Virus record (IMG/VR): IMGVR_UViG_3300032245_000717
Coordinates: 1 to 25,148 of that record
DNA: 25,148 bases
Direction: 5' to 3' (one strand)
Origin: a virus
Taxonomy: Duplodnaviria; Caudoviricetes
Shown: piece by piece, positions 2 to 25,148 of the stretch
How positions within the stretch are numbered: the first letter of the stretch is position 1
How the letters are laid out: each line of letters starts with the position of its first letter
Position numbers and translations under genes: made by a program
The notes under the pieces: generated by a model
The model's input: only the letters and a program-made list of their open reading frames with translations
The model's database searches: none
Told to the model about the DNA's origin: nothing

Positions 2-1198
2 TTTACAGCAACTTCATCACCTGGTGGATTTACTGGAAGCGGAGCTGAGTCACCAGTTACTGTACCAGGGTTACAGTCAGGAGTTTCATATACATTTACT
101 GTAACTGCAACTAATAGCTACGGAACTTCAGACCCATCAGCAGCATCAAATTCAGTTACTACTACAACAAAACCAGCTATTATGTCAGCCCCAACTGCAA
201 CAGCTCAAACAAATCAAGATTATGTTGAGTGGACAGCACCAAATAATGGTGGATCAGCAATAACTGGATATGTATTAACATCTTCTGATGGCCCAACCTA
301 TACAACAACAGCATTAAATTATACTGTTCCAGAAACAGCAAATACATCACAGACTTATAGAGTTCAAGCAGTCAACGCAAACGGTACGGCAGACTATTCT
401 GGCAACTCTAATCAAGTTACAACACTAGCACCGTTCTTCCCACCATTCTTCCCTCCAAGCTTCTTCGCCCCACCAGGGTTCTTCGCCCCACCAGGGTTCT
501 TCGCACCTCCAAGCTTCTTCGCCCCACCAGGGTTCTTTGCACCTCCAGGGTTCTTCGCCCCACCAGGGTTCTTCGCCCCACCAGGGTTCTTCGCACCTCC
601 AAGCTTCTTCGCCCCACCAGGGTTCTTCGCCCCACCAGGGTTCTTCGCCCCACCAGGGTTCTTTGCACCTCCAGGGTTCTTTTCACCACCAAGATTTCGG
701 GCATGTATTGACCAAGATACTTTAGTTGCAACTATGGACGGAGAATTCATAGTTTATGTACCAGCCAAGGATATTAAAATTGGAGATACTGTAGCTGGAG
801 TTACATGGACAGAATTAACATCTGAATCAGAACAAGATCCATTTACTTGGTCTACCACTGCTTTAACTGAAATGACAGTTGTTCCAACATCAATCAGAGG
901 AATAATTGAATCAGTAAAAGATATAACAATGTATTTCAACGGAGATACTACAAAGAGATTCTCTCTTGAGCAGACAGTGCTTGCAAAAAGAGATGACAAG
1001 TATATGTTCATGACAACAGGAACAGTACAAGTTGGAGACATTCTTGTAGAAAAGGTTGAAAACCAAGGCTTTATAGAGGTACCAGTCACAGCAGTAGACA
1101 CAATTGATGAAACAAGAAATGTTTATCAGCTAGATGCAGACCCAGTAGACGTATTGCTTGCAGGCAATATTGTAGTACACAACTACAAGATATTCTAA
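2..1198 (+). CDS. 5'-truncated fibronectin type III domain protein with a C-terminal (FFAPPG)n repeat and Hint/intein-like domain; probable virion surface protein
   Basis: The frame is open from position 2 (FTATSSPGG...VPGLQSGVSYTFTVTATNSYGTS), so the ATG at 182 is probably internal. FN3 signatures are GLQSGVSYTFTVTATN and WTAPNNGGSAITGY...YRVQAVNANG. These are followed by the repeat and CIDQDT...VVHN. Confidence 0.85.
   Translation, partial: FTATSSPGGFTGSGAESPVTVPGLQSGVSYTFTVTATNSYGTSDPSAASNSVTTTTKPAIMSAPTATAQTNQDYVEWTAPNNGGSAITGYVLTSSDGPTYTTTALNYTVPETANTSQTYRVQAVNANGTADYSGNSNQVTTLAPFFPPFFPPSFFAPPGFFAPPGFFAPPSFFAPPGFFAPPGFFAPPGFFAPPGFFAPPSFFAPPGFFAPPGFFAPPGFFAPPGFFSPPRFRACIDQDTLVATMDGEFIVYVPAKDIKIGDTVAGVTWTELTSESEQDPFTWSTTALTEMTVVPTSIRGIIESVKDITMYFNGDTTKRFSLEQTVLAKRDDKYMFMTTGTVQVGDILVEKVENQGFIEVPVTAVDTIDETRNVYQLDADPVDVLLAGNIVVHNYKIF
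434..694 (+). repeat. Coding 18-bp tandem repeat: 12 x FFAPP[G/S] plus FFSPPR (461-694), preceded by FFPP-FFPPS
   Basis: Units read directly: ttcttcgccccaccaggg, ttcttcgcacctccaagc and ttctttgcacctccaggg. Confidence 0.98.
704..1183 (+). other. Hint (intein-like/BIL-type) autoprocessing domain, 160 aa
   Basis: It starts with Cys (CIDQDTLVAT, block A-like), contains AKDIKIGDTV and VQVGDILV, and ends in VYQLD...LLAGNIVVHN (block F/G-like). Only YKIF-stop follows. Confidence 0.85.
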
Positions 1199-1213
1199 GA
1201 AAATACTTGAAGA

Positions 1214-1921
1214 TTGTCTATCTATCATCTACATATACCTAGGACGTCTGGCGCATATATTAGAAATAATATATTACCTGACCTGATATCTAAAGATATA
1301 GAACACTTTGCCTCTAATAGAAGCATAATTGATGTTGATCAAATATCAAGAAGTAAACTTGTAATAGGACACTTTGGGAGAATGCCATTGAAATATATGG
1401 ATTCCCCCAAAGTTTTCTGTTTACTTAGAGATCCCGTGGAAAGATATATAAGCTATTTTAAATATACTACTGGTTTTGTGACGGGTCAAGAAAAGGCAGA
1501 AGAGAACCTTGAGCAGTGGCTGTATAAAGATCAGTCTAAAGTTCAGGGGAACCTACAGTCAAAATTTTTAACTGGATCAACTGATGTTAGCCTATTTAAT
1601 AGCTACATAAAAGACTCTCAAGATCCATTTATAGATAACCTATGGCACCTACAAGACTATTCTTTAGATATTGATAAGATAAAAGAGTCAATGTCTGAAA
1701 TGAATGTGTACACTATGGAAAACTATGATAAGTTTAAGTTTGATTTTAGCGAAGAGATTAAAAAGCAGTTTGGGTTCAATGCGTTTAAACACTCAGACAA
1801 AGCCAACGAATCCCCAGCAGTTAGAGTTGAAATAAATGAATCACACAAAAAGATAATTAAAGATTTAAACCAAGTAGATTGCGAGATATACGACTATGTA
1901 CGAAAAACTGAAAAAAGATAG
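1214..1921 (+). CDS. PAPS-dependent sulfotransferase (Sulfotransfer_2-like)
   Basis: N-terminal HLHIPRTSG (5'-PSB loop), LLRDPVERYISYFKY (3'-PB motif) and a C-terminal LNQVDCEIYDY helix. TTG start. Confidence 0.8.
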   Translation: MSIYHLHIPRTSGAYIRNNILPDLISKDIEHFASNRSIIDVDQISRSKLVIGHFGRMPLKYMDSPKVFCLLRDPVERYISYFKYTTGFVTGQEKAEENLEQWLYKDQSKVQGNLQSKFLTGSTDVSLFNSYIKDSQDPFIDNLWHLQDYSLDIDKIKESMSEMNVYTMENYDKFKFDFSEEIKKQFGFNAFKHSDKANESPAVRVEINESHKKIIKDLNQVDCEIYDYVRKTEKR

Positions 1922-2486
1922 CACATGGACAATAATAGAAAGATCAGCATTTGAAATAGATCAGATTAAAAAAGAATTTTTGTCTTACGATGAAGAATGG
2001 TTTTTGGACACATCCAGACAAGAAAGAACATATAGCCATACAAATACACAATGCTATTCAATACTTGAGTGGTCATACACTTGGGAGCCAAGCCAAAAGC
2101 CAGAATCTATAAAAAAGTATAGTTTAAAAACATCAGAGGCCCAGGCACAGCTAGATAAAATATGTAAAGATTTAGAAGACTTTTACAGCGGAAAAGTAAT
2201 GAGATTAGAATTTATTAAGCTTTTGCCATATAGGAATATAAATAAGCATGTTGATGGCGGATCATCTCTAGGATACGCAAGAAGGTGCCATATACCAATT
2301 ATAACAAATGAAAAAGTTTTATTTAATGTTAAAGACAATTCCATGAATATGAAAGAAGGAATTTGTTATGAAATTAATAACGTTTTACTACACTCTGTTG
2401 AGAACCCCACCTCACTAGATCGAGTCCATTTAATTATTGACATCCTGCCAGACAGCATGTTACAATATAACAAAACAGGAGAATAA
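1896..2486 (+). CDS. Aspartyl/asparaginyl beta-hydroxylase-like 2OG-Fe(II) oxygenase
   Basis: IKLLPYRNINKHVD (HxD), RCHIPIITN, YEINNVLLHSVEN (distal His) and DRVHLIID match the Asp_Arg_Hydrox-like pattern. Confidence 0.78.
   Translation: MYEKLKKDSTWTIIERSAFEIDQIKKEFLSYDEEWFLDTSRQERTYSHTNTQCYSILEWSYTWEPSQKPESIKKYSLKTSEAQAQLDKICKDLEDFYSGKVMRLEFIKLLPYRNINKHVDGGSSLGYARRCHIPIITNEKVLFNVKDNSMNMKEGICYEINNVLLHSVENPTSLDRVHLIIDILPDSMLQYNKTGE
2437..2466 (+). promoter_or_regulatory. Sigma70/SigA-like promoter inside the 3' end of the preceding gene
   Basis: TTGACA (2437-2442), 18 bp spacer, TGtTACAAT (-10 at 2461-2466). AGGAG at 2477-2481 precedes ATG 2487. Confidence 0.65.
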
Positions 2487-3173
2487 ATGACTATAAGTAT
2501 TGAACCTAATTGGTCTTCAAAAGAGATGCTATTCCCAGGACTATGGGTTTATAGAAATGTTATGCCACAAAGCATCATGGACAGGACAAAAACCTTTATC
2601 GATTCAAATCAAGAAGACTATAGCTGGGCAGACGCAACAGTTGGTTATGCAGAAACAAAGTTAGACTATAGAGACTGTCAAGATTTTAAAATTGGAGAAA
2701 TAAAAAACCCAAAGAATATACAAGAGTTTACACTATCAGAAATATGGGAAAGCGCATACGCAGCACAAATTCCCGCCGTTGAGGATTACTGCGGTAAATA
2801 TAATGTAAGAATGAATTACTGGGAAGTTATGAATTTTATTCAATATGGACCTGGCCAACACTTTAAAGAACACGCAGATCACGGATTCTCCTATAGCGCC
2901 ACAGTTTCTTTAGTTGCATATCCAAATGATAATTATGAAGGCGGAGAACTTACTTTTCCAAAACTAGATATTTCTATTAAGCCACAAGCTGGAGACCTAT
3001 ACGTATTCCCATCAACATATCTATTCTCACACATAGCAGAACCAGTAACATCTGGAAGAAAGTATTCTATTGTTACAATGTTAGATTATAATGATCATGC
3101 ACATTGCCAAGAGTTTATGCAAATGAGAGCAGAAAGAGTTGAACGTGAAAAACATAAAGGTATACAAGACTAG
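2487..3173 (+). CDS. Prolyl-4-hydroxylase-like 2OG-Fe(II) oxygenase
   Basis: YGPGQHFKEHAD (HxD), YPNDNYEGGELTFP, KPQAGDLYVFPS and SHIAEPVTSGRKYS (His; Lys at the 2OG-binding position). Confidence 0.88.
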   Translation: MTISIEPNWSSKEMLFPGLWVYRNVMPQSIMDRTKTFIDSNQEDYSWADATVGYAETKLDYRDCQDFKIGEIKNPKNIQEFTLSEIWESAYAAQIPAVEDYCGKYNVRMNYWEVMNFIQYGPGQHFKEHADHGFSYSATVSLVAYPNDNYEGGELTFPKLDISIKPQAGDLYVFPSTYLFSHIAEPVTSGRKYSIVTMLDYNDHAHCQEFMQMRAERVEREKHKGIQD

Positions 3174-3843
3174 AGAAGGTTTTGGACGGGTATCACCACT
3201 GACAGCAAAAAGGTCATGGATGGATGAGACTTATAAAGCACATGCTTATAAATGTTTCCCAGTTAGCCTAACAAATCAGCTTGGCTGGGGAATATCTTTC
3301 CCAGAAGATATTTCTTTTATTTGGGACGGCGTATCAGACTCAACTTCAGAACATGTTAAAATTTTATCTGGAGAAAAATATGTCTATTCAGAGCGTGGTA
3401 ATGCAACTATAAGCTTTAACACAGGACTCATGTTCGTAACAGAAAAAAATGAAACACTGCTCTCTATGCCAGTGCCAAATCAATTTCTAGACGGTGCTGT
3501 TCCATTTACAACGCTTTTATCAACATCATTCTTTAGAGGCGACCTACCAGTTGCCTGGAGGATAACAAAGCCTAATGTTGAAATAACAATTAAGGCAAAT
3601 ACACCAATAATATCTATAGTCCCAATAAATTTAGATGAACTGCAAAATTCAGAAATGACTGAGCTTCCTATACACCAGGTTCCAAGATCAGAATTTTTAA
3701 CAAAAGAATATTCTGAAGCGGTAGCCAAAACAAATGCTGCTGGAGAATGGACTAATTTTTATCGAGATGCAACAGATGAAAAAGGCAAAAAGATTGGTGA
3801 ACACCAAATAAAAGCAATAAGACTAAAGGGTGGGACCGAATAA
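3139..3843 (+). CDS. DUF6065-like protein
   Basis: RSWMDETYKAHAYKCFPVSLTNQLGW resembles the DUF6065 N-terminal pattern, recalled from memory rather than searched. The start (TTG 3139) is uncertain. Confidence 0.6.
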   Translation: MNVKNIKVYKTREGFGRVSPLTAKRSWMDETYKAHAYKCFPVSLTNQLGWGISFPEDISFIWDGVSDSTSEHVKILSGEKYVYSERGNATISFNTGLMFVTEKNETLLSMPVPNQFLDGAVPFTTLLSTSFFRGDLPVAWRITKPNVEITIKANTPIISIVPINLDELQNSEMTELPIHQVPRSEFLTKEYSEAVAKTNAAGEWTNFYRDATDEKGKKIGEHQIKAIRLKGGTE

Positions 3844-3852
3844 AATGTTTAA

Positions 3853-3861
3853 TGGTAGAAT
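3853..3861 (+). promoter_or_regulatory. Extended -10 promoter element
   Basis: TGgTAGAAT lies in the 45-bp gap before ATG 3889, with an AAGGA Shine-Dalgarno-like sequence downstream. Confidence 0.5.
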
Positions 3862-3888
3862 AGATACTATACAGAATAAGGACTAAAA

Positions 3889-4566
3889 ATGAAGCCAGCA
3901 AATCAAGATATGAAATTACATGCCCCAAAGTCAATAACGCCATCTGGGTTTTTTGGTAAATCTTCAGATAATATTGTTGAGCTAGAAAACTTTTTAACCA
4001 CAGAAGAAAGAACTAGGTTAATTACATTTGCACTAAATAATAAAATATGGGATCACACAGAGACTCACGTAGATGAAGATGGTCTTGTTTTATATGATGC
4101 GGATATATGGAAAGACCGTGTGTGCACGTACTTTTCACTTATGGCCTCAGACCCAACAATATTAGAATTAATTAATAGCATGATTGCAAGATTAAAAATT
4201 GAAGTAGATAAATTTTTTAATGTTGATGCAAAAGAGACAGGTCCAGCAATTGTTAGGTGGCCAGTTGGAGCAAGACAAGAACCACACGCCGATAAAGAAT
4301 TCCATACTGGAATTGAAAAGGGAAGAGCAAACGATTTTCCTCATTATGATTTGGCTGGCTTATTTTATTTTAATGATGACTATGAAGGCGGAGAACTATA
4401 TTTCCCACAACACGGCATAGAGTTTAAGCCAAAAGCAGGAGCAGCTTATTTTTTCCCAGGTGATATGTATTACACACATGGGGTAAGACCAGTAAAATCT
4501 GGCAACCGATTTACATCTCCATTTTTTTGGACGATAATGAAACATACAGGAGAAAGACAACCATGA
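3889..4566 (+). CDS. Prolyl-hydroxylase-like 2OG-Fe(II) oxygenase
   Basis: LENFLTTEE, QEPHAD, YFNDDYEGGELYFP, KPKAGAAYFFPG and THGVRPVKSGNRFT. Confidence 0.88.
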   Translation: MKPANQDMKLHAPKSITPSGFFGKSSDNIVELENFLTTEERTRLITFALNNKIWDHTETHVDEDGLVLYDADIWKDRVCTYFSLMASDPTILELINSMIARLKIEVDKFFNVDAKETGPAIVRWPVGARQEPHADKEFHTGIEKGRANDFPHYDLAGLFYFNDDYEGGELYFPQHGIEFKPKAGAAYFFPGDMYYTHGVRPVKSGNRFTSPFFWTIMKHTGERQP

Positions 4567-5384
4567 GTGATTTAGAGTATATAGAATTATATCCAAAAGT
4601 AGATGTATATAGAAATGTTTTGGCTGACCCACAAAAACTATATCAAACAATGAAAAAGTCAGAGCAGTCTTCTGAAGGAAATTATTATCTAAAGAAATGG
4701 GATCCTTGGGCGCATTTTGGAACCTACACTCAAATAAAGGACTCGTCAGAAAGAAATGATGCAAATGAGGATCCAATGTTTATTGAAGAAAAAGATTTTG
4801 CAACCCAAGTACAGCAAGCATATGACTTGGTATTAAATGATTATATAAAAAGACATAATATAGAGTTAAAGCCAGGATGGCATTTTAGCGGATGCTCTTT
4901 TTCTAAATACTTTGATCAAGTTGATGTTCTAAATAATAAAATGACAATGCAGTACCACACAGACTTTATTATATCTGAAAGAGATATGCCTGGCTCTAAA
5001 TTCCAGATCACATGCACTATGTATATAAATGATGACTACCAAGGTGGAGATATCGAGTTTTTTGTTGATGGCAATTTAATTAATCACAAGCCACAAGCAG
5101 GCGATATATTAGTTTTCCCATCAGACCAGCCATACTTTCATGGAGTTAAAACAATTCACGGTGGAGAAAAGTTTTTTGTTAGAAACTTTGTCATGTACCC
5201 ATATGATGGACACCCAGACTGGATTGCAAAGCAAAAACAAATGGGTGCAGCCAACTGGATGAAAAAAGAATTTAAAAGATTAGAATACGATAATCCAAGA
5301 AATATGAAATACCTACAAAATGGTGTCCCTACAGAATATGATAATTTAACAGGGGATAAATCTGGACCAGAGAAGGGCATGTAA
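4563..5384 (+). CDS. Prolyl-hydroxylase-like 2OG-Fe(II) oxygenase
   Basis: MQYHTD, YINDDYQGGDIEF, KPQAGDILVFPS and FHGVKTIHGGEKFF. The start is moved from 4527 to ATG 4563, which gives an ATGA overlap with the upstream stop. Confidence 0.85.
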   Translation: MSDLEYIELYPKVDVYRNVLADPQKLYQTMKKSEQSSEGNYYLKKWDPWAHFGTYTQIKDSSERNDANEDPMFIEEKDFATQVQQAYDLVLNDYIKRHNIELKPGWHFSGCSFSKYFDQVDVLNNKMTMQYHTDFIISERDMPGSKFQITCTMYINDDYQGGDIEFFVDGNLINHKPQAGDILVFPSDQPYFHGVKTIHGGEKFFVRNFVMYPYDGHPDWIAKQKQMGAANWMKKEFKRLEYDNPRNMKYLQNGVPTEYDNLTGDKSGPEKGM

Positions 5385-6148
5385 TGAAACTAACTAAACT
5401 AGCAGACGACATACATCTTTATGAAGACTTTATATCTATAGATGAATGTAAAAAAATTATTAAGCTATTTGATGTAATGATAGAAAAGTACCCAGATTAC
5501 TGGAAGTCAATATCTTTTTATGAGTCATACTCTGGCATGTATCCAGAACCAAATGATCCAATGCTGGAAGAGGTTGGCCTTCCGCCAACTTTTTTTGCTG
5601 ATACAAGAGCTAGATTTAAACACGCAGCGGGGGTACTGGCAAACCAAGATACAGAAAAAATGTCAAGAATTAGTTTTCATATGCAAAGATGGCTACCAGG
5701 GGCATTTGCGCCAAAGCATTCTGATAACACTTCTAATGATGGAGTTTATGGTGCATTTACAAGAAGTAGGTATGCTGGATTCTTATACCTAAATGATGAT
5801 TTTGATGGAGGGCTTTTAAAGTTTTATGCAGACAATGAAAAAAATATTTTTGAAGTGACTCCAAAAGCAGGATCATTTTTAATTTTTCACGGTGGCCACA
5901 AGAACATGCATGAAGTTACACCAGTCCTAAATGCACCTAGATATACAATTGGTTCATTCTGGGATGATAGAGAAGAATCTGACTATCCACAAGAAGTTAG
6001 AGATGCTTGGGCAAAAGAATTAGCTGAAGTAAGAGCGATGCAAGCAGAGCAGGCAGTAGAGTGGACAGACGTTCGTAAGCAAGGGCTAAGGCTTACCCCC
6101 TACGGTGCACCAGTCCCAGCAGCAGAAGTTGGCGCAGAAGATGAGTGA
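5384..6148 (+). CDS. Prolyl-hydroxylase-like 2OG-Fe(II) oxygenase
   Basis: YEDFISIDEC, APKHSD, YLNDDFDGGLLKF, PKAGSFLIFHG and MHEVTPVLNAPRYT. TAATG coupling to the upstream gene. Confidence 0.88.
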   Translation: MKLTKLADDIHLYEDFISIDECKKIIKLFDVMIEKYPDYWKSISFYESYSGMYPEPNDPMLEEVGLPPTFFADTRARFKHAAGVLANQDTEKMSRISFHMQRWLPGAFAPKHSDNTSNDGVYGAFTRSRYAGFLYLNDDFDGGLLKFYADNEKNIFEVTPKAGSFLIFHGGHKNMHEVTPVLNAPRYTIGSFWDDREESDYPQEVRDAWAKELAEVRAMQAEQAVEWTDVRKQGLRLTPYGAPVPAAEVGAEDE

Positions 6149-6794
6149 AGATTCATTTAACCCAGAAGACATGTATCACATGTTTATTCCGCAGAGGCTT
6201 TCTCATCATATATGGTATTTTAAAAATGTTTTAAGTTATCCAAAAGAGCTATTAGAATTTATCAATGAAGTTGATAAAGATAGCAGAAGCCATGAAATTA
6301 TAACTGAATGGCATGACTGGACGGCAAGCGACAATAAGTCTTTTGTGTATGGCAAGAACAAAGTGATTTTAACAAACAACATTAAAACTAAGATTGACAA
6401 TGGAAGACTTGATCAAAAAATACTATATATTAAAAATAGTATTGAGATGGCTTTTGAGATGTGCCTGAATCAATACTTAGCATCACACGGATTGGACTCT
6501 AGCCATTATAATCTTATGACTTCAGAACTGCCAATTAGAAAATGGGTTGGTCCAGGAATGGGTCCACATTGCGATAGCTATGACGGAGATACAGACCTTG
6601 CATTCTCAATGATATCTTATTTGAACAATGGCTATAGCGGTGGAGAGATCGTCTTCCCAGACCATAACATTTCTATAAAACCAGAAGAGGGAAGCTTATT
6701 GATATTCCCAAGCCAGGAGCCTTACTTGCATAAGGTAAATGATATAGTTTCAGGAGAAAGGTATACCTGCCACTTATCAGTATATAAAAAGTAA
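6141..6794 (+). CDS. Prolyl-hydroxylase-like 2OG-Fe(II) oxygenase
   Basis: MGPHCD, YLNNGYSGGEIVFP, KPEEGSLLIFPS and LHKVNDIVSGERYT. The start is moved from 6105 to ATG 6141, which overlaps the upstream stop. Confidence 0.85.
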   Translation: MSEDSFNPEDMYHMFIPQRLSHHIWYFKNVLSYPKELLEFINEVDKDSRSHEIITEWHDWTASDNKSFVYGKNKVILTNNIKTKIDNGRLDQKILYIKNSIEMAFEMCLNQYLASHGLDSSHYNLMTSELPIRKWVGPGMGPHCDSYDGDTDLAFSMISYLNNGYSGGEIVFPDHNISIKPEEGSLLIFPSQEPYLHKVNDIVSGERYTCHLSVYKK

Positions 6795-6796
6795 AG

Positions 6797-6805
6797 TGGT
6801 ATAAT
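6797..6805 (+). promoter_or_regulatory. Extended -10 promoter, probably giving a leaderless transcript
   Basis: TGgTATAAT ends 6 nt before ATG 6812. No Shine-Dalgarno sequence is present. Confidence 0.65.
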
Positions 6806-6811
6806 TAAAAA

Positions 6812-7981
6812 ATGGCAACAGTAGGCGTTAATGGATGGCACTTCCCAAGTTACTCGGACTCTCCCGACGTTCCTAGGGATCTTGGCATCTTGGGAACAGA
6901 CATAGCGACATTCATTGCAGCAAATCCTGGCCCGCAGGGAGCAACAGGACCTTCAAACGTCATTACAGTTGCCGCAACAAATACTATTAGTCCTGGACAA
7001 AACGCATCAGTTACTATTAGCGGAACATCTCCTTCTCAAGCATTAACTTTTAATATACCAAGAGGAGTAGATGGTGTTCTCGGAGGACCAGGTCCAGCAA
7101 ATGTATTAAGTGTTGGAACAGTTGCATCAGGAGCCGCTGGTACGCAACCAATAGTAACAATAACTGGAACCGCTCCTTCACAAACAATAAACTTTACAAT
7201 TCCTTCTGGCCCAGCGGGCGCAACTGGTGCAACAGGTACTACTGGTGCTACTGGACCTAAAGGTGACGCAGCAGCAACGATATCAGTATCTCCAACAGTT
7301 GTTACGGGTGCTGCTGGAACAAATGCAGCAGTAACAAATTCTGGAACATCTAGCGATGTAGTTTTAAACTTTACAATTCCTCGTGGAGCAGATGGAGCCC
7401 CAGGCGCAAAAGGAGATACAGGAGCAACAGGAGCAGCTGGAACAAATGCAAACATAGATCCAATTGCTACAAGAATTTCCCTGCAGTCTATGATATCTTC
7501 ATCCACTGGAGTAAACTCAAACTGGTATCCACTTTCTAATAATTTATATTCAATAGGTCAACCTATAGATGTTGCCGTAAATGCTACTTCAAATAGATTT
7601 TGGAAAACAATATATTCAAATACTGGAACAATAAATAGTTCTGATGAAAGATTAAAAACTGAAATTGCAAACTCTAACCTAGGACTTGATTTTATCAATA
7701 AACTAAATCCAGTCAGTTACAAATTTATAGAAGGCGGAAAAAAGATAGTTGATGAAGAGATTATATCCGTACCAGGAACTAGAATACACTATGGATTAAT
7801 TGCACAAGAAGTAAAATCTGTTTTAGATGAAGCTAATGTTGAAGATTTTGGTGGGTGGGTACTAATAGACAAGGACAGCCCAGATTCAGAACAGGCGTTA
7901 AGATATGAAGAATTTATTTCTCCTTTAATTAAAGCAGTACAAGAGCTTACAGCAAGAGTAAAAATACTAGAAGAGCAGTAG
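6812..7981 (+). CDS. Tail fibre-like protein with collagen-like Gly-X-Y segments and a C-terminal S74 intramolecular chaperone
   Basis: GPAGATGATGTTGATGPKGD and GADGAPGAKGDTGATGAAG, three ~50-aa repeats ending in F[NT]IP[RS]G, and SSDERLKTEI...LNPVSY...HYGLIAQEV...LIKAVQELTARV. Confidence 0.85.
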   Translation: MATVGVNGWHFPSYSDSPDVPRDLGILGTDIATFIAANPGPQGATGPSNVITVAATNTISPGQNASVTISGTSPSQALTFNIPRGVDGVLGGPGPANVLSVGTVASGAAGTQPIVTITGTAPSQTINFTIPSGPAGATGATGTTGATGPKGDAAATISVSPTVVTGAAGTNAAVTNSGTSSDVVLNFTIPRGADGAPGAKGDTGATGAAGTNANIDPIATRISLQSMISSSTGVNSNWYPLSNNLYSIGQPIDVAVNATSNRFWKTIYSNTGTINSSDERLKTEIANSNLGLDFINKLNPVSYKFIEGGKKIVDEEIISVPGTRIHYGLIAQEVKSVLDEANVEDFGGWVLIDKDSPDSEQALRYEEFISPLIKAVQELTARVKILEEQ

Positions 7982-7988
7982 GTCCAGG

Positions 7989-9836
7989 ATGTCATACGCA
8001 AGAGTAGTCCTAAATGACCACCCAACATCATTTTATCTTTTAGACGAAGTAATATCTGGAACAACAGTTTCTTACGATGCACTTAAAACTCAATATGCCA
8101 CCTATGCTGATTTAAGAGATAATGGTGTTTCATATGCCAATCTTGGAGGAGCGGTTATATATGACTACTCTGGAAATTCTAATAATGGAGTTTCTTTTAA
8201 CTCCTCAAATGCAGTCCTAATGCCATTAGTTCCTGGATCTATATCTGGAACTAAAATGAATTCAGATACAAAAATTATATATGACACACCAGGAATGGCA
8301 ACATCTGTATACAAAAATAATCCGTTCTCTATAGATTTTTGGTTTAAGCCACCTCAAGTTTCAACGCAAGAAATACCATTAGTTTTTCATACATATACTT
8401 TAGATCAGAAAACCTATAAAGTTGGAGTAACATATAAAAATGGCAACGTGCTTTTTTATATTGGATCTTCTATTGCGATTGCTAAAATAGAAAAGACTTC
8501 AGTTTCTTATATTTCTGCTGTATACAACGGCTCTGCAATAATTCTATATGTAAATGGAATTGTTAAATCAACAAAATCTATTGATGAGACCTATCCATTT
8601 TCTAACCCAAATGTATCTTTTATGAGCGGTCCGTCTAATGAAGCAGAACCTTTTGTTATAGACTGTGTTGCATTTTATAGATACGTATTGTCTGAAGCAC
8701 AAATAAAAAATCATTATTTATCTGGATCATATGAATTAAATCATTTGCAAATTGTTGAACCTGACGGAGGAATTCTTTTTACATTAAACCATTCAAAAAT
8801 ATTGCCAGTAAAACAATACTATTATCCATCTTCAACAAAATGGTCAGATGTAATTAATGATAATGCCGTACTATCTACTGATCACGACTACATAACTTTT
8901 CAGAAAACTGACACTGAAGAGGCAGCGTCATTTAGCTTCACAGAAGAAATCCTAATACCGTCTGGCATTGGAATAAACAGCTCTCAGCTTACATACTACC
9001 CAGATATTGAAAACATATCTGTTAAAATTAGCCTTGACGGATTAACTAACTGGAGGCAATGTGAAAATAATAAATCTCTTCCGTATATAACAAAAGATGA
9101 TTTGACAACAAGCGAACGTGTCTATATTAAAGTCACTATGTCATCAGATGATACTTCCTTTGATATCCCTAGATTGGAGACACTATCAATAGATCTTTTT
9201 AATAACATAGACTATTATGCAGACAATTCTGGAGATAGAATATACTCAGACAAAGACTATGATCTATCTAGGTATAATGAAAGAATCCTTTCGTATAACA
9301 ATAATAATGGACTTTCAATGCATAGCACTGGCGGATTTAATATTGAGTCATCTACCTCATCAAAAACCATAGAAATGATATATACCCCAGGCTCTGGCAA
9401 AAATGTACTATTTGCAAATGGCTCCAAGATATTTGAATGGTCAGCGGATGGTACTATTAATAAAAGCGGAATCTCAAGCGTATACGTAAATGGGAATAAT
9501 GTTACATCCCAGACAAATTGTTCAAGTTTTTTCACGGTAGGATTCCCACACCATGTAGTAATAGTTCTATCATCCAGTACTTCTGGGATAATTAAAATTA
9601 ATCAAAATGTGGCTGGAACATCTTATGGGGTAGGATCTAAATATAATAATTTAGCTATATACCAAAACGACCTTACTCAGGCCAAGATATTAAACCACTA
9701 CAACTACTATATTGGCAATTGGTCAAATTCTGTAGGGTCAGAAGCCCTTTCAATTCAGGAATCTGCATCTGGAAATGACCTAACAGCATACTCAATCTAT
9801 TCTATTGAATTGTCTGGTTCAAATATAACCATTTAG
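7989..9836 (+). CDS. LamG/concanavalin A-like lectin-fold virion protein (two LamG-like domains)
   Basis: DYSGNSNNG, FSIDFWFKP, YISAVYNGSAIILYVNG and IDCVAFYRYVLSEAQIKNHY. A second copy has HHVVIV...NNLAIYQNDLTQAKILNHY. Confidence 0.72.
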   Translation: MSYARVVLNDHPTSFYLLDEVISGTTVSYDALKTQYATYADLRDNGVSYANLGGAVIYDYSGNSNNGVSFNSSNAVLMPLVPGSISGTKMNSDTKIIYDTPGMATSVYKNNPFSIDFWFKPPQVSTQEIPLVFHTYTLDQKTYKVGVTYKNGNVLFYIGSSIAIAKIEKTSVSYISAVYNGSAIILYVNGIVKSTKSIDETYPFSNPNVSFMSGPSNEAEPFVIDCVAFYRYVLSEAQIKNHYLSGSYELNHLQIVEPDGGILFTLNHSKILPVKQYYYPSSTKWSDVINDNAVLSTDHDYITFQKTDTEEAASFSFTEEILIPSGIGINSSQLTYYPDIENISVKISLDGLTNWRQCENNKSLPYITKDDLTTSERVYIKVTMSSDDTSFDIPRLETLSIDLFNNIDYYADNSGDRIYSDKDYDLSRYNERILSYNNNNGLSMHSTGGFNIESSTSSKTIEMIYTPGSGKNVLFANGSKIFEWSADGTINKSGISSVYVNGNNVTSQTNCSSFFTVGFPHHVVIVLSSSTSGIIKINQNVAGTSYGVGSKYNNLAIYQNDLTQAKILNHYNYYIGNWSNSVGSEALSIQESASGNDLTAYSIYSIELSGSNITI

Positions 9837-19190: not shown

Positions 19191-22100
19191 ATGGCAGATA
19201 ATTTAATCACGACCAATATTACCGCCCACGCAGACTTCACGAGTTTAAGAACTCAACTAGCTGCGGTTACTGCCCAACTCGTAAAATTACAAGAAACAAC
19301 AGCGGGAACTAACGCCAAGCTTGCAAATCAAATTGCAGTGATGAACAAGTCGTTTGCAGAAACGATGCGTTCAACTGGACAGTTCTCTTCACACTTTGTA
19401 TCACTATCTTCAGACGTAGACAAGTTCGGCAAGAACTTAGATAGAGGCCGCTTAAAGCTCAACGATTATTATAATGCTTGGAACGGCCATACAAAGAAAA
19501 CTAGCACATTAATTAAAGACCTAGCAAAACAGCAAGTAATGCTTGAGCAGGCAATTATTCAGCCGATAGGCAAAAATGCACAAGGTCTAATGCAGTATAA
19601 CGTAATGGTTGCAAAAGGGCTTGATGAAGTAAAGAACAAGATGAACCTTGCTCGACAAGAAGCAGCAATTATGAACAAGGTTATGCTTGACGGATCAAAT
19701 CAACTTATTAACTGGGGTAAAAATACACAGTGGGCAGGACGCCAGCTAACTGTTGGCTTGACAGTTCCTCTTGTTGCATTTGGCGCAGCAGCACAAAAAG
19801 CATTTAGAGAAGCAGACGCAGAACTAGTAAGACTTACAAAAGTTTACGGAGGGCTTGCAGCCACATCTGCAGCAGACTTAGCTCAAGTTAGAAAAGATGT
19901 AAGCGCAACAGCAAAAGAAATTGCTGGTGCCTATGGAGTAGCGTACAAAGATACAATTTCATTAGCAGCAGATCTTGCAGCAACTGGAAAGCAGGGCAAT
20001 GATTTACTTCAAGCAACACAACAAACTACAAGATTAGCAGTGCTTGGAGAAGTTGATAGACAAGATGCAATGAAAGCAACTCTTGCTATTCAAAATGCAT
20101 TTAAGCAAAATACAGATGAGCTAACACAATCAATTGACTTCCTTAACGCAGTTGAAAACCAGACATCAACAAGCCTTGCAGATTTAACTGAAGCTATTCC
20201 AAAGGCTGGTCCAGTAATTAAAGCATTAGGCGGAGATGTAAAAGACTTAGCTTTGTACCTCACAGCAATGAAAGAAGGTGGTGTTAATGCTGCAGAAGGC
20301 GCAAATGCAATTAAGTCAGCAATGGCATCACTTATTAATCCGACTAAAGTAGCAACAGAACAATTTGCTTCATTTGGAATTGATTTAAAGGGTATAGTAA
20401 ATACAAATGCTGGAGATTTAACTGGCACAATAATGGCCTTACAGTCTGCGCTTGATCAATTAAATCCATTAGATAAATCAAGAGCCATTGAACAATTATT
20501 TGGAAAATTCCAGTTTGCAAGAATGTCTGCTCTATTTGAAAATCTTGGAAAGCAAGGATCACAGACTCTTCAGGTAATGGATCTTATGAAGGCAAGCGCA
20601 TCTGACCTTGCAAACATATCATCACGAGAATTAACAATGATGACAGAATCCGCTTCTGGACAATTTAAAAGAGCATGGGCCTCAGTACAGGCAGATCTAG
20701 CACAAACTGGAGAGCAGTTCTTAAAGATAAGCACAAAGGTATTAAAGGTAGTAGACTCAATAATTAAATTCTTCCAGCACTTGCCAGGACCAGTTAAAAC
20801 ATTCTTAAATGCATTGGGTGGAATTACAGCAATTGCTGGTCCTCTCATCATGATGGCTGGTGTAATGGGTAACTTTATTGGGTATGTTGTAAAAGGTATA
20901 TTCCATTTAAGACAACTTGCCAAGGGTGGTCAAGGATTTAAGTTACTCACACCAGAAATTATGGCTGCAGAAGCAGCTGCAAAGGGATTAGCAACATCAT
21001 TCTATTCTGATTCAGAAGCAACAATTGTTTTATCAAATGCAGTAAATACATTAACAGAATCATTTAACAACCTTGAGCTAAAAGCAAATGCAGCAAAAGT
21101 TGCAGTGCAGCCAGCGATATCTACAGTTGCAGGCGGAGTAATTTCTGCAGGCGGAGCAGGACAAAGAGTTGTAGATAAAAATAATCCATTAATTGGCGCA
21201 CCATATTCAAGAGATATGTCTCACCTTATACCTTCACAAAGCCCACAGATGGGAACAATATTTGGAACGGTTCCTGGAGCAGGCCCAGTAAATGTAAGAA
21301 TTGGAAAGAATCCGCAAGCATATATGAATCAAGATATGCCAAAGATTCCAGGAGTTACATCTGTTAATGGAACTTCAACTGGCATAGTTGCACAAGAGGC
21401 AGCAAAATGGCATGCGATGACAGCAGCAATTGCTATGCAGTCAGAAACAGAAATTAAAGCATTAAAGACTGAAGTGATGGCAACTGGAACAATTACATCA
21501 AGTTTGGCAGAATCGTATCAAGCACTTCTTCCACAATTTTCTGAGATTACTCAGCTAGCTGCAGCCGAAACACAAGCAATTGTTGCAGAGCTTCAAGCAA
21601 GCAAGATAACAGTAGATCAGGCTAGGGCAAAAGTTATTCAAATGAATGCAACAGTAGAGGCAATGCTTGCCGAAACTGCAGCAGCAACTGCAGCTGGTAT
21701 GGGAAGAGTTGCAAATCTAACTACAGTCCCACTGACATCGCAGCCAGTAGTAGACCCAATAACAGGCAAGTCTAATATGAAGGAAATGTTCCATAAAGGA
21801 ACAACAAAAGATATTGTTGATAAGATTGCAAGAGCACTTGGTGGAGTTAGAACATCAGGCGCAGGATATAATATTCAAACAACAAAACCTAAGTTTGCAG
21901 ATGGAGGAATAGTCCCTGGAACAGGAAATAGCGATACATACCATACAACAGCTGAGGCTGGATCATTTGTAATTAATAAAAAATCAACACAAGAAAATAT
22001 GCCAATCATAAGCAATCTTCTTGGCGGAACCCCAGCATTTGCAGATGGAGGTCAAGTACCAGTAGTTCTAACACCTGGCGAAGCAGTCATTCCAGCAGAT

Positions 22101-25100
22101 ATTGCACAGGACAATATGCCACTAATGCATGCATTAAATGGTGGGCCTGGAAATACATCTGGCCTTGGAAGAAATCTTGGAGGAGGACTTTCAGAAAACT
22201 TATTTACTGGATTAAAGGGCTGGCTAACAAGAAATTCAGATCCTAGCTATGACGCATCTTTAAAAAATAGAGTCATATTACACGATGCAGCAGTATTAAA
22301 TCATTTAGGATTTAGTGAAGACGAAGCAGTCTCTATGGCAAAAAGAGATTTTGAAGAAGCTATGCAAAGAACTAAAGATCCAAAAACTGGTCGGGTAGAT
22401 AGAAAAGCTTTTAATAGATTTAGAATAGAGCAGTCCAGACGCATGCAAGAGTATATTGACATGCAGGGAATGGGACGAACAGTAGTAAATAAAGATGGTT
22501 CAACCTCAAAAGCAAAATATAAAGATTTATTATGGCAAGATAAACCAGAAGAGCTAAAGCCTGGAGGAAGACCGTCAGCCAATGCAAGAATTCAACCTTC
22601 TAGAAGCTTGGTTGCTGCGCTCATGGCTAGAGCAGATATTGATCAGGTTTCTTTACAAAGAGTAATGAATACATTTACATCAAATGGAAAACTAGACTAT
22701 GCGTCAGAGCATTTAGATCAGGATAGAAATTTTTTTACTGAAGAAAACGGAAATGTAAAGAGTAATAGAACAAGAGGCAACGCATACTTAGCTATGGCTG
22801 GAAGCAGCAAAGTTAATAACTTTACAAACTGGCTGGCTTCTATGACACAAGGTAAATTTGTAGACAGAGTTCCTTTAACTGGAAATGCCGCAAGAGAGAC
22901 CGCAGACCTACTAGCCAAAGAGCTTAAGTACGGAAATGCACAAAACCTTATTAAGAGAATGCCTGTAATTCAAAGAGGTCATATGATTACTCAGATGATG
23001 AGACTTCTTCTTACAATAGGTAGAGCACTTCCATTAACAAGAGAAATTGCTGCAAATTCAGGTGGACAAATCCCTGGAAAATTTGCACAAAGACTATTTG
23101 GCGGAGGAAGAGCAATGTTCCTTGGTATGCCTAAAACAATTAAGCAGGTAGAACAACAAAGAGCAATGAAATTAGCAATGGAAAAAGCAGACATTGCAGT
23201 TAAAGATTCTAGATTTGCAAAGCACCCAGTAACAGAGTATGGCGATTTATTAGAGCCTACATCTGGAAGAAGTTTCCCAGTGCCTGGAATTGGCGGAGTA
23301 TATACAATAAATGGCGAAAAGGTTTTTGTTAAACCAATGCTTGATGAAAAGGCTGCGCTTGCAGAAATGAGAGCAACGCAAATTGCTCGTGAAGCGCATG
23401 GCTTAAAAGCTCCAAAACAAAGTATTAATGTAATGCGTGATCCAACAGACCCAAAGGGATTAAGAAAACTACTTGTGCTCGAATCTCCATTCGATAAGGC
23501 TCTCACAGTTCAAGATGGTAAATTTACTACTGATGAATACTTTAGACAACTTCTTGCATCATCTCTTCGTGGAGATAAAGATTTAGGCAGAGGAAACTTA
23601 TCTGGAAATGTATTATCAGATGTAGGAACTGCTGGAGTGTTTTCAACCGCATCTGGTCTAAGAGACTATTCTGGATTCATGCCTTCAGTTGGAGATCAAG
23701 CAATGATTAACCTACTTGGAATTAAGGGAAGCGGAGCAAAGAAGTTTTTTGCTGAATCAACAATGAACATTCCAAAGGGTATGACACCAGATGCTTATAA
23801 TTCAAGAATGCTTGAAGAGATTGAAGCAACTCTACCAAGACTTAAACAAACTATTGGTAGCTTTGATCTCAATCAGCAAGAAAAAGTTATTTATGCAAAA
23901 ATGATTAAAAGACTTGAAGACGCAAGAGATGTAAAGTGGAGAGAACTTCATGGAGTGCACTCTGCAGTAGTTCCTTCAAAAGAAACAAACCTAACGCCAG
24001 CAGCACTTGCTAAAATTGCGGCAGCTGAAGAATTAAAGAGAAGACAGTCTGGGCATATAGTTAGCCTCTCAGATGCTGGATTTAAATCATCTGCAAATGG
24101 ATTTGCAATTGGTGGAATGATTGGCAATGTATTAAAGGGTAAAGCAATGCATAGAATTGGCGCAGGGTTTGGACCAACTGGTGCACCAAAGCCAAGTATG
24201 TATGAGTCAGCTCCGTGGGGTGTAAATTCATTATCTATTGAAATGGCCAATACTTTATTTGCAAATACTGGATTAAGAAAGCACACTCAAAAATTATTCT
24301 ATGATAAGTTTGCTGCGGCACTTGCAAAAGAAAAGCCTTATGGTTATGTTAAGGATGCAAAAGGATCTTTAAAAAATGCACTTGAGCCAGATGTTTTAGA
24401 CTCCGTAGTAAGATCAGCTGCATCAGATTTGATTGGAGACAGGTCTGTATTAAAACAACTATCTCCAATAGATAAAGATATTTTAAGACAAAAGTACTTA
24501 AATTGGGAATCTAAAAAAGATACCCCACTTACAGAATCTTTAAAGAAGATTATATTTGGTTTAGAGGGAAGAGAAAAAGGTGGCCCAGTTAATGGAGGCC
24601 AAGCATATGTTGTTGGAGAAAAAGGACCTGAACTTTTTGTTCCTAGAGTTTCTGGCGGCATAGTTCCAAATAATAAATATGGAATTGGTGGACAGATTGC
24701 TGGCGGCATGGCAGTTGCAGCAGGAGCACAATTTATTGCTAGCAAGGTTGCAAACCCAATCATATCTATGATAATCCAGCAAGTTGGATTTATGCTGCCT
24801 ATGATGATGCAGTCTGCTGCAATGATGCAAGGAGGCGGAGGCAAGGGTAAGATCATGTCAAAAATACCTGCATCAATGAAAAGCCCAGTTGGAGTATTTT
24901 CAGAAAAAAGTGGGGGACTTACTAAGTACGGCCTAGCCCTAGATAAACTAAATACTAGCGGGAAGTTTCTCCCAGGAATACTTGGAAAAATTGGAATGGC
25001 TATGACAAGATTCAATTTAATAGCCACTGCTGGATTTTTAATAATAACAGGTGGACTTAAGCTATGGAAAATGCATCAAGAAAGCATGAGATTAAATGCA

Positions 25101-25148
25101 TTAGGATATGGCATGACAGCCGAAGGGGCACAAAAAGCTGGCTTAAAA
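19191..25148 (+). CDS. Tape measure protein, 3'-truncated (more than 1986 aa), with internal cargo domains
   Basis: ATG 19191 (MADNLITTNITAHADF...) is in the same frame as the open reading at the window end. No stop was seen in the stretches I translated, and the track shows no terminated + strand ORF here. It has an Ala/Leu-rich helical core (WGKNTQWAGRQLTVGLTVPL...) and the TMP motifs FADGGIVPG and GGPV...VGEKGPELFVP. Confidence 0.92.
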   Translation, partial: MADNLITTNITAHADFTSLRTQLAAVTAQLVKLQETTAGTNAKLANQIAVMNKSFAETMRSTGQFSSHFVSLSSDVDKFGKNLDRGRLKLNDYYNAWNGHTKKTSTLIKDLAKQQVMLEQAIIQPIGKNAQGLMQYNVMVAKGLDEVKNKMNLARQEAAIMNKVMLDGSNQLINWGKNTQWAGRQLTVGLTVPLVAFGAAAQKAFREADAELVRLTKVYGGLAATSAADLAQVRKDVSATAKEIAGAYGVAYKDTISLAADLAATGKQGNDLLQATQQTTRLAVLGEVDRQDAMKATLAIQNAFKQNTDELTQSIDFLNAVENQTSTSLADLTEAIPKAGPVIKALGGDVKDLALYLTAMKEGGVNAAEGANAIKSAMASLINPTKVATEQFASFGIDLKGIVNTNAGDLTGTIMALQSALDQLNPLDKSRAIEQLFGKFQFARMSALFENLGKQGSQTLQVMDLMKASASDLANISSRELTMMTESASGQFKRAWASVQADLAQTGEQFLKISTKVLKVVDSIIKFFQHLPGPVKTFLNALGGITAIAGPLIMMAGVMGNFIGYVVKGIFHLRQLAKGGQGFKLLTPEIMAAEAAAKGLATSFYSDSEATIVLSNAVNTLTESFNNLELKANAAKVAVQPAISTVAGGVISAGGAGQRVVDKNNPLIGAPYSRDMSHLIPSQSPQMGTIFGTVPGAGPVNVRIGKNPQAYMNQDMPKIPGVTSVNGTSTGIVAQEAAKWHAMTAAIAMQSETEIKALKTEVMATGTITSSLAESYQALLPQFSEITQLAAAETQAIVAELQASKITVDQARAKVIQMNATVEAMLAETAAATAAGMGRVANLTTVPLTSQPVVDPITGKSNMKEMFHKGTTKDIVDKIARALGGVRTSGAGYNIQTTKPKFADGGIVPGTGNSDTYHTTAEAGSFVINKKSTQENMPIISNLLGGTPAFADGGQVPVVLTPGEAVIPADIAQDNMPLMHALNGGPGNTSGLGRNLGGGLSENLFTGLKGWLTRNSDPSYDASLKNRVILHDAAVLNHLGFSEDEAVSMAKRDFEEAMQRTKDPKTGRVDRKAFNRFRIEQSRRMQEYIDMQGMGRTVVNKDGSTSKAKYKDLLWQDKPEELKPGGRPSANARIQPSRSLVAALMARADIDQVSLQRVMNTFTSNGKLDYASEHLDQDRNFFTEENGNVKSNRTRGNAYLAMAGSSKVNNFTNWLASMTQGKFVDRVPLTGNAARETADLLAKELKYGNAQNLIKRMPVIQRGHMITQMMRLLLTIGRALPLTREIAANSGGQIPGKFAQRLFGGGRAMFLGMPKTIKQVEQQRAMKLAMEKADIAVKDSRFAKHPVTEYGDLLEPTSGRSFPVPGIGGVYTINGEKVFVKPMLDEKAALAEMRATQIAREAHGLKAPKQSINVMRDPTDPKGLRKLLVLESPFDKALTVQDGKFTTDEYFRQLLASSLRGDKDLGRGNLSGNVLSDVGTAGVFSTASGLRDYSGFMPSVGDQAMINLLGIKGSGAKKFFAESTMNIPKGMTPDAYNSRMLEEIEATLPRLKQTIGSFDLNQQEKVIYAKMIKRLEDARDVKWRELHGVHSAVVPSKETNLTPAALAKIAAAEELKRRQSGHIVSLSDAGFKSSANGFAIGGMIGNVLKGKAMHRIGAGFGPTGAPKPSMYESAPWGVNSLSIEMANTLFANTGLRKHTQKLFYDKFAAALAKEKPYGYVKDAKGSLKNALEPDVLDSVVRSAASDLIGDRSVLKQLSPIDKDILRQKYLNWESKKDTPLTESLKKIIFGLEGREKGGPVNGGQAYVVGEKGPELFVPRVSGGIVPNNKYGIGGQIAGGMAVAAGAQFIASKVANPIISMIIQQVGFMLPMMMQSAAMMQGGGGKGKIMSKIPASMKSPVGVFSEKSGGLTKYGLALDKLNTSGKFLPGILGKIGMAMTRFNLIATAGFLIITGGLKLWKMHQESMRLNALGYGMTAEGAQKAGLK
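23283..23960 (+). other. HipA/PI3K-like atypical kinase domain within the tape measure protein
   Basis: PGIGGVY (Gly loop), KVFVKP (Lys 23331), ALAEMRA (Glu 23364), HGLKAP, RGDKDLGRGNL (catalytic loop, 23568-23600) and LSDVG (DFG-equivalent, 23619). Confidence 0.65.

Follow-up and report, generated by a model that had tools for sequence, protein, structure and literature searches.

The 25,148-nucleotide phage stretch IMGVR_UViG_3300032245_000717 (hereafter the window, which is the whole IMG/VR record, linear and 23% complete) opens with a gene encoding FN3-like domains, a Pro/Phe tandem repeat and a Hint domain, followed by a cassette of eight genes. Our analysis indicates that this locus is probably a phage-encoded system for hydroxylating the C-terminal Pro/aromatic tail carried by at least one predicted virion fibre protein. 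Judged from sequence, the core cassette, which consists of oxygenase a, DUF6065, oxygenase b and usually oxygenases c, d and e, is catalytically intact and accompanies Pro-Pro tails. The repeat is the likeliest substrate of these core enzymes, with somewhat better than even chances in our judgement, because the enzyme set covaries with the tail type and because a second fibre gene repeats the tail type. The features of the locus are listed below.

2..430, + strand: a pair of FN3-like domains in a protein of the fibre region, truncated at the 5' end by the contig (Pfam fn3; full-length orthologue in survey locus L004)
431..703, + strand: Pro/Phe tract PFFPPFFPPS-(FF[AS]PP[GSR])13-FRA, predicted substrate (repeat analysis, covariation)
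704..1198, + strand: Hint cap resembling Type A bacterial intein-like (BIL) domains, whose Cys1 is at 704, with Gln (971-973) in place of the block-B His, and with His-Asn at 1178-1183 and then YKIF; predicted to be self-cleaving (profile, alignment)
1214..1921, + strand: sulfotransferase-like protein with HIPRTSG and RDPxxRxxS motifs, accessory (Pfam, PHROG, motifs)
1896..2486, + strand: 2-oxoglutarate (2OG) oxygenase of the Asp_Arg_Hydrox family (AspH-like), accessory, travelling with the sulfotransferase (Pfam, profile)
2487..3173, + strand: core oxygenase a (HAD...H...K), nearest solved relative the Bacillus anthracis prolyl 4-hydroxylase (P4H), retained in a distant lineage (Pfam, profile)
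3139..3843, + strand: DUF6065, dUTPase-like fold with an invariant Y-x-C-x-P cysteine, core gene (Pfam, alignment, model)
3889..4566, + strand: core oxygenase b (HAD...H...R), the most conserved gene, retained in the distant lineage (motifs, profile, ratio of nonsynonymous to synonymous change, pN/pS)
4563..5384, + strand: oxygenase c (HTD...H...K) (Pfam, motifs)
5384..6148, + strand: oxygenase d (HSD...H...R), best sequence match human prolyl 3-hydroxylase 1 (P3H1) (motifs, profile, model)
6141..6794, + strand: oxygenase e (HCD...H...R) (Pfam, motifs)
6812..7981, + strand: tail fibre with short G-X-Y tracts (including X-Pro-Gly) and an S74 chaperone, first gene past the cassette; a rival substrate, outside the core (Pfam, PHROG)

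The open reading frame (ORF) of the repeat protein covers 2-1198 and is open at its 5' end; about 55 residues are missing relative to a 442-aa relative in L004. The FN3-tail gene sits, in relatives, directly after an Mtd_N tail-fibre gene. The tract holds 13 hexapeptides (10 FFAPPG, 2 FFAPPS and 1 FFSPPR), with 10 occurrences of Pro-Pro-Gly, and is the sole tandem repeat of the window; none of the independent contigs listed bridges the copy number of 13. The first enzyme gene starts 15 bp past the repeat gene and the successive gaps are 15, -26, 0, -35, 45, -4, -1 and -8. The first-pass annotation, made from the letters alone, had described FN3 domains, 13 units, a Hint domain and eight genes from 15 bp on, most of them overlapping or abutting; every element of this layout was confirmed, positions included, and the eight genes are intact and closely packed. 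The order sulfotransferase, AspH-like gene, oxygenase a, DUF6065 was present in 13 of 13 loci found via the Hint domain, several of which are near-identical. Compared with two relatives, pN/pS was 0.06-0.52 for all genes (uncorrected, with synonymous sites near saturation), and by this measure all of them are under purifying selection.

A DNA pattern for PFFPPFFPP occurs in about 1,800 IMG/VR stretches according to the tool's estimate; 125 loci were returned, 80 of them with flanks. Sixty-two of the flanked loci had a repeat ORF and downstream room, and oxygenase a and DUF6065 were downstream in 47 of these. The remaining 15 were mostly larger repeat proteins in another gene context, downstream of a cassette, or cut short; a whole-record search for five of them recovered a cassette elsewhere in one and found none in the other four, which are fragments (31-53% complete).

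A search by the FN3 part alone, chosen so that neither tail nor enzymes would steer the selection, gave 95 distinct proteins, reduced to 79 by removal of 16 with an incomplete cassette. This set contained 41 Pro-Pro tails, 35 other aromatic tails and 3 unclassed ones, with locus L313 counted as Pro-Pro here and as non-Pro-Pro under a stricter later rule. DUF6065 adjoined 39 of the 41 Pro-Pro tails and oxygenase d 40 of them, whereas both were beside 0 of the 35 others. A larger set of 111 rows, which is biased because it also takes loci found through DUF6065 or the motif, gave DUF6065 with 75/76 Pro-Pro tails versus 0/35 others and, under the strict rule, oxygenase d with 76/76 Pro-Pro orthologues having a complete cassette. 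The 35 non-Pro-Pro tails comprised 28 single-Pro tails such as (FGFSP)n, six (FGA)n and one (YYN)n. A different, PF13759-like oxygenase family accompanied 25 of the 28 single-Pro tails, and all six (FGA)n tails had only a DUF6065 paralogue, with no oxygenase in the cassette. Five Pro-poor genomes (four of them at least 90% complete) contained no DUF6065 or oxygenase d orthologue anywhere (best scores 27 and 35 bits). The association between repeat-Hint genes and the oxygenase cluster that had been proposed from the window is thus real, and the enzyme set changes with the tail class. Taken together, these results bear out in part the first-pass reading of the repeat as enzyme substrate, in that repeat composition covaries with the enzyme set; its X-Pro-Gly argument, its Hint and sulfation steps and its peptide-cluster label found no support, as detailed below.

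The argument from X-Pro-Gly, the canonical P4H substrate, finds no support in the family at large: 49 of the 76 Pro-Pro tails are without PPG, yet all 49 keep oxygenases a, b and d. The residue after Pro-Pro is usually Phe, and X-Pro-Gly is not the conserved unit of the family. Oxygenase c adjoined 26/26 PPG-rich and 30/49 PPG-free tails.

The alternative cassettes beside single-Pro tails (L250:10780-12689, L241:11315-18678, L248:11389-16295) encode oxygenases with H-x-H...H + Arg, a short-chain dehydrogenase, DUF6065 paralogues (PHROG 7084) and a protein weakly resembling glycosyltransferases; a profile comparison of this oxygenase family with the AspH-like family was negative. Further tail types were also seen: (YYN)n at L345:10001-11483, (PYYN)n with genes for adenosine 5'-phosphosulfate (APS) kinase and sulfotransferase at L271:1137-6127, and (FCPFFP)n with regular cysteines at L328:6165-7025. 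Some Hint-less tails finish in Cys-rich peptides (L019:609-2079, L293, L297, L317, L343 and others) and have an unannotated 140-aa gene next. This gene followed 11 of 19 Cys-rich-ended tails as against 1 of 96 other tails, had no PHROG match, and possibly forms a further tail-partner pair with them.

Two lines of evidence reach beyond linkage. A second fibre gene, mostly 4-9 kb upstream, bears the tail type of its own genome, including odd units (28 pairs, three of them from one locus); across these pairs a median of 3% of other tails scored higher. In 13 of the 28 the two tails share no more than 21% of the DNA words for their shared peptides, so that the match outlasts synonymous drift at the protein level. 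The other line is a distant lineage with another N-terminal domain, gene order and flanks, in which (PPFF)n is still accompanied by DUF6065 and oxygenases a and b, these being 27-30% identical. Its loci (L054, L076, L359, L365, L370 and L372) are also present in metagenome bins labelled as unrelated bacteria; they encode small proteins with an N-terminal domain that is PASTA-like by eye, ending (PPFF)n-x-FK, followed by oxygenases b, a and DUF6065. The same tract is fused to fibre proteins of 700-1400 aa, and some distant members have only 120-180 aa.

Library-scan scores for window genes were taken from Pfam and PHROG, and fold comparisons were made by VIA-align. Pfam assigned five genes to 2OG-FeII_Oxy_3 (E 5e-9 to 9e-14). 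The HxD...H...R/K motif is kept in all six oxygenases (these five and the AspH-like one) and conserved across orthologues; in a to e, the iron triad and the 2OG-binding Lys/Arg are conserved in 50-138 orthologues each. Oxygenases a, b and d and the AspH-like gene were profiled against solved structures, and the nearest solved relatives of all four are prolyl or proline hydroxylases. Oxygenase a matched Bacillus anthracis P4H (1.6e-8), oxygenase b human P3H1 tied with Bacillus anthracis P4H (4e-8), and oxygenase d P3H1 (3.6e-9). The model of oxygenase d, with a predicted local distance difference test score (pLDDT) of 93, tied Pseudomonas P4H, P3H1, an algal P4H and a prolyl hydroxylase domain enzyme (PHD) at Z 15.2-15.3; these top four are all peptidyl-prolyl hydroxylases, and AlkB-type enzymes came at 11-12 Z. 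The prolyl-hydroxylase-like label given earlier is therefore sound for a, b and d by sequence and for d also by fold.

DUF6065 was identified by Pfam at E 3e-30. Its model (pLDDT 94.9) has a dUTPase fold: the top 8 fold matches were dUTPases (Z up to 9.8, root-mean-square deviation 2.4-5.6, 104-123 residues aligned), at 10-14% identity and without a dUTPase Pfam match. Residues R17, W19, Y29, C31, P33, N38, G41, N106 and G212 are invariant. In a search for cultured members, no DUF6065 match was found among 50,697 GenBank phage records. The protein resembles the gene described as having a conserved cysteine and a dUTPase fold next to the dioxygenase array of Synechococcus phage Syn9 (PMC2938197).

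The C-terminal domain of the window protein taken alone (nt 704-1195) had no Pfam match, and a single-sequence PDB search with the window Hint gave nothing significant. A profile of 50 Hint homologues matched the bacterial intein-like structure 2lwy (E 1e-10), and 28 of the 50 members matched Pfam Intein_splicing. As in Type A BIL domains, Cys1 and a C-terminal His-Asn are present and there is no +1 Cys/Ser/Thr (PMC4031507). Points of difference are that block-B Thr-x-x-His reads Ser-Leu-Glu-Gln (nt 962-973), that only four residues follow the His-Asn, and that about half of the Cys1-bearing relatives are without His-Asn. The block-B His, an assisting residue in Type A BIL (PMC4031507), is found in 4 of 7 aligned close sequences, and many relatives have Gln as in the window. 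Cys1 is present in 63 of 84 distinct ends, and His-Asn is missing from 31 of those 63. The retention of Cys1 or Ser1 despite frequent loss of His-Asn points to N-terminal cleavage as the retained function of the domain.

The first-pass annotation had treated Hint as an integral processing domain. It was found in only 49 of the 111 FN3-tail orthologues, its presence changes 16 times on the FN3 tree, and Hint-less orthologues terminate directly after the repeat. In place of Hint, L325 and L118 have, after the repeat, what we take from the motif to be an S74 chaperone, so that Hint and S74 appear to be interchangeable kinds of self-removing cap. At L325:324-1680 two frames share the chaperone, and the gene after the sulfotransferase is a degenerate AspH-like one that has lost HxD. 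A [KR]-x-[FY] C-terminus was seen in 11 of 36 Hint-less tails (e.g. L030, L164, L174) as against 10 of 922 other genes. The residues past the Hint His-Asn fit the same pattern: YKIF in the window (1178-1195) and LKMY, LKMF, GKVY and AKAF in relatives. Type A BIL domains can splice fragments like those after His-Asn (PMC4031507), and this end is possibly a conserved C-terminal signal or a splice product.

In the scheme that we favour, the Pro-Pro unit would be the site at which the Fe(II)/2-oxoglutarate enzymes hydroxylate proline during infection. The P4H-like a and c would act on one proline and the P3H-like b and d on the other, as in the 3-hydroxyproline-4-hydroxyproline (3Hyp-4Hyp) of collagen, and Phe positions might be hydroxylated as well. 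Collagen P3H acts on Pro-4Hyp-Gly (PMC11012932), and such a requirement for Pro-4Hyp fits the Pro-Pro dependence seen here, the 3- and 4-positions being assigned by analogy. DUF6065 would be a cysteine-dependent partner on the same tail. Hint would keep the hydrophobic tail soluble and self-cleave at Cys1, so that the fibre tip would carry the modified tail for adhesion, host recognition or fibre stiffening. A structural or adhesive function for the tail, possibly adjusted by its hydroxylation, is suggested.

The sulfotransferase and AspH-like pair is what separates the window from most of the family. The sulfotransferase match was E 0.003 to Sulfotransfer_2, below the Pfam cut-off, and 3e-6 to PHROG 3347. 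The usual 5'-phosphosulfate loop of sulfotransferases that depend on 3'-phosphoadenosine 5'-phosphosulfate ends with Thr or Ser; in the window RDPxxRxxS is present and the loop reads PRTSGAY, without the last Thr/Ser. The AspH-like protein belongs to Pfam PF05118 (Asp_Arg_Hydrox, E 1e-14), but its best PDB profile matches are L-proline cis-4-hydroxylase (1e-10) and proline 3-hydroxylases, not AspH. Single-sequence PDB searches with the two genes gave nothing significant. Among the 81 Hint genes whose neighbours are known, 12 are followed by the pair. Ten of these belong to the Hint clade of the window, which has 11 members, many of them found by the Hint search itself; the other two are L313, with a non-Pro-Pro tail, and L349. 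The pair is also next to a Gly-rich tail with an APS kinase gene (L266), and the sulfotransferase adjoins 8/76 Pro-Pro tails only. By this distribution the pair is a mobile add-on that goes with the Hint lineage rather than with the repeat, which may or may not be its target. The sulfation step of the first-pass annotation is thus not supported as a component of the system, and sulfation of the hydroxylated repeat is possible but unlikely. A link of the sulfotransferase to tails richer in Ser/Thr/Tyr (0.134 in 8 tails versus 0.102 in 68) was looked at and found unconvincing.

Several observations weigh against hydroxylation of the tail as the function of the locus. The FN3 tree shows 6 changes of tail type and 7 of DUF6065, and the three well-supported independent pairs all agree, with a sign test that is not significant (p 0.25). 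On a tree of the portal and its neighbour, available for the 54 of the 111 rows that had both genes, the Pro-Pro state changes only twice (p 0.5, not significant). Only two to six independent switches underlie the covariation and, because tail and cassette are adjacent, one recombination moves both and change counts cannot exclude hitchhiking. Three of the 28 tail pairs are near DNA copies (0.9 or more), so that copying does take place. The Pro-poor genomes hold 2-5 other PF13640 genes elsewhere, so that such genes are frequent in this group of phages whatever the tail. For a unit with two prolines, a set of five enzymes is larger than hydroxylation of proline requires. As P4H, P3H and PHD folds tie, structural matches leave substrate and regiochemistry unfixed, and PolD, which acts on a small molecule, reached Z 14.9 in the oxygenase d comparison, less than 1 Z from the top. 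The place of the FN3-tail protein in the virion is predicted from gene context, the activity of the window Hint is uncertain because its block-B His is replaced by Gln, and virion proteins of chlorovirus PBCV-1 yielded no hydroxyproline despite in vitro P4H activity (PMC7019647).

Part of this would be expected if the oxygenases were linked passengers acting on host proteins or small molecules and co-segregating with the tail through adjacency and joint inheritance in a hypervariable block, which we consider unlikely. The two tail-class changes on the portal tree and the unrelated PF13640 genes agree with it, as do APS kinase genes elsewhere, including in a genome whose cassette is without the sulfotransferase pair, the movement of the accessory pair with the adjacent Hint, and the fact that the Syn9 array was taken for secondary-metabolite genes (Iyer et al. 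2010, PMC2938197). It does not account well for three tail classes with three enzyme sets, for an unlinked second gene with a matching tail, for a pairing that persists with different flanks at 27-30% identity, or for the constant presence of oxygenase d beside Pro-Pro tails under the strict rule. A different target within the virion, chiefly the collagen-like G-X-Y tracts of neighbouring tail fibres, would make the repeat incidental. The next gene of the window has such tracts with X-Pro-Gly, and there are precedents in mimivirus L230 (PMC5802723) and in the account of Iyer et al. (PMC2938197). Among 48 loci with 8 kb on each side, tracts of at least 5 triplets within 8 kb were present at 16/29 Pro-Pro loci versus 3/18 others; 13 of the 29 full-cassette loci therefore have none and three cassette-less loci have one, and we regard this alternative as improbable.

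The remaining alternatives are less probable still. The first-pass annotation had likened the locus to a cluster for a ribosomally synthesised and post-translationally modified peptide (RiPP). In a true RiPP system the modified repeat would be cut from its FN3 carrier and released to act on host or competitors. A precursor does lie beside tailoring-type enzymes, as shown by gene order in the 13 close loci and by covariation. The repetitive core, the self-cleaving domain, the Cys-rich ends that come with a specific extra gene and the members of only 120-180 aa can be read in the same way. Nevertheless, Hint cleavage frees only the C-terminal side, and no protease, transporter or leader-binding family was found among the scanned cassette genes, some of which remain unannotated. 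The same tract is also fused to 700-1400-aa fibre proteins, and the window repeat to FN3 domains in a tail-fibre block; nothing indicates a released peptide, and a true RiPP is very unlikely. Equally improbable is a use of the tail as a handle for assembly or sorting that dUTPase-fold proteins recognise, with the oxygenases acting on residues outside it. The (FGA)n tails keeping a DUF6065 paralogue only, the sharing of one tail end by several fibre genes and the enriched [KR]-x-[FY] end would suit a handle, but 16 of the 35 non-Pro-Pro cassettes are without a dUTPase-fold gene and the oxygenase family tracks proline content.

Hydroxylation of the tail by the core cassette, as predicted here, would work like the modification of structural proteins by viral enzymes that has been put forward for PBCV-1 P4H and demonstrated, on collagen, for mimivirus L230. 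The PBCV-1 enzyme (vCPH, PDB 5c5t) is likewise a virus-encoded P4H-type enzyme hydroxylating Pro-containing peptides (PMC7019647); it matched weakly by sequence (E 0.014, oxygenase a profile) and at fold Z 14.0 (oxygenase d model). There, a single enzyme is found in an algal virus, whereas these phages have five paralogues, a dUTPase-fold protein and an adjacent, covarying, aromatic-rich repeat. Mimivirus L230 is a viral 2OG oxygenase with collagen as its substrate, and the hydroxyl that it introduces is modified in a second step; it differs in acting on lysine, with glycosylation, on G-X-Y collagen (PMC5802723), whereas in the phage repeat no more than one residue in six is Gly, and many repeats lack it. 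Like the window, the Syn9 array combines tandem 2OG oxygenases with a conserved-Cys dUTPase-fold gene, but it contains halogenases and a JmjC gene and was interpreted as metabolite synthesis; the Pro/Phe repeat, the Hint cap and tail-enzyme covariation were not found in the available part of that account, which is in silico only (Iyer et al. 2010, PMC2938197). The same account proposes hydroxylation followed by sulfation of co-encoded tail-collar or collagen-like proteins for bacterial beta-hydroxylase and sulfotransferase operons (PMC2938197). With the collagen P3H/P4H pair (PMC11012932) the window shares Pro-Pro-Gly and the order of matches, P3H1 first for b and d (tied with P4H for b) and P4H for a; the phage matches are largely confined to the catalytic core, the family does not conserve Gly after Pro-Pro, and there is no triple-helix periodicity. 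A literature search by title and start of abstract, with limited coverage of subscription papers, found no paper describing the repeat-cassette pairing.

These aquatic phages are rich in 2OG-Fe(II) oxygenases, for which the literature examined assigns no substrate. The repeat is a defined candidate substrate that is cheap to synthesise, and three tail classes with three enzyme sets constitute a natural swap experiment. If the proposal is correct, a widespread lake-phage family, with the repeat pattern in about 1,800 IMG/VR stretches, modifies its fibres post-translationally with its own enzymes; a role could then be given to DUF6065, and Pro/Phe polymers would have a new group of peptidyl hydroxylases. 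A broader and more speculative idea, which we hold only tentatively, is that lake actinophages run an exchangeable 'tag and tailor' code, in which one low-complexity aromatic tail on two or three fibre proteins per genome is combined with a matched enzyme set, add-ons, caps and diversified tips. The sets would be a P3H/P4H-like battery with DUF6065 for Pro-Pro tails, PF13759-like enzymes for single-Pro tails and, for (FGA)n, a dUTPase-fold cysteine protein on its own; add-ons would include genes for sulfotransferase, APS kinase and a glycosyltransferase-like protein. A self-removing Hint or S74 cap would guard the tail, BIL-type splicing might restore the [KR]-x-[FY] end, and the fibres would finish in Hyp-Phe-Phe-like tips that are chemically diverse, perhaps self-assemble, and serve host range or defence evasion.

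The window also encodes a siphovirus-type structural block recognised by Pfam (portal, prohead protease, capsid, tail tube, tape measure). Its capsid protein shows 55-59% identity to those of Streptomyces phages Sham, Faust and Mildred21, among others. WhiB, a marker for assigning actinobacterial hosts (PMC6802176), is present in 3/3 complete relatives. Near-identical sequence occurs in freshwater and lake metagenomes from other studies, including a 5.4-kb contig that spans window 1366-6806 with 116 differences. The host is therefore likely a freshwater actinobacterium. Promoter and terminator scans of the window gave chance-level results only, and one metatranscriptome contained short pieces at depth 2-3 only, which is no demonstration of expression. 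A scan of 185,579 cellular genomes for the repeat pattern returned 28 loci, 9 of them with cassette genes downstream or nearby. A cellular version of the system was rejected: all 9 are metagenome bins with phage-type genes, and the one isolate match has no such ORF. The tape-measure protein (window 19191-25148, >1,986 aa) carries long, non-helical-looking inserts beyond residue 900, without Pfam match. The LamG-domain gene at window 7989-9836 is a candidate receptor-binding protein, with 44-45% identity to close relatives versus 73-94% for its neighbours.

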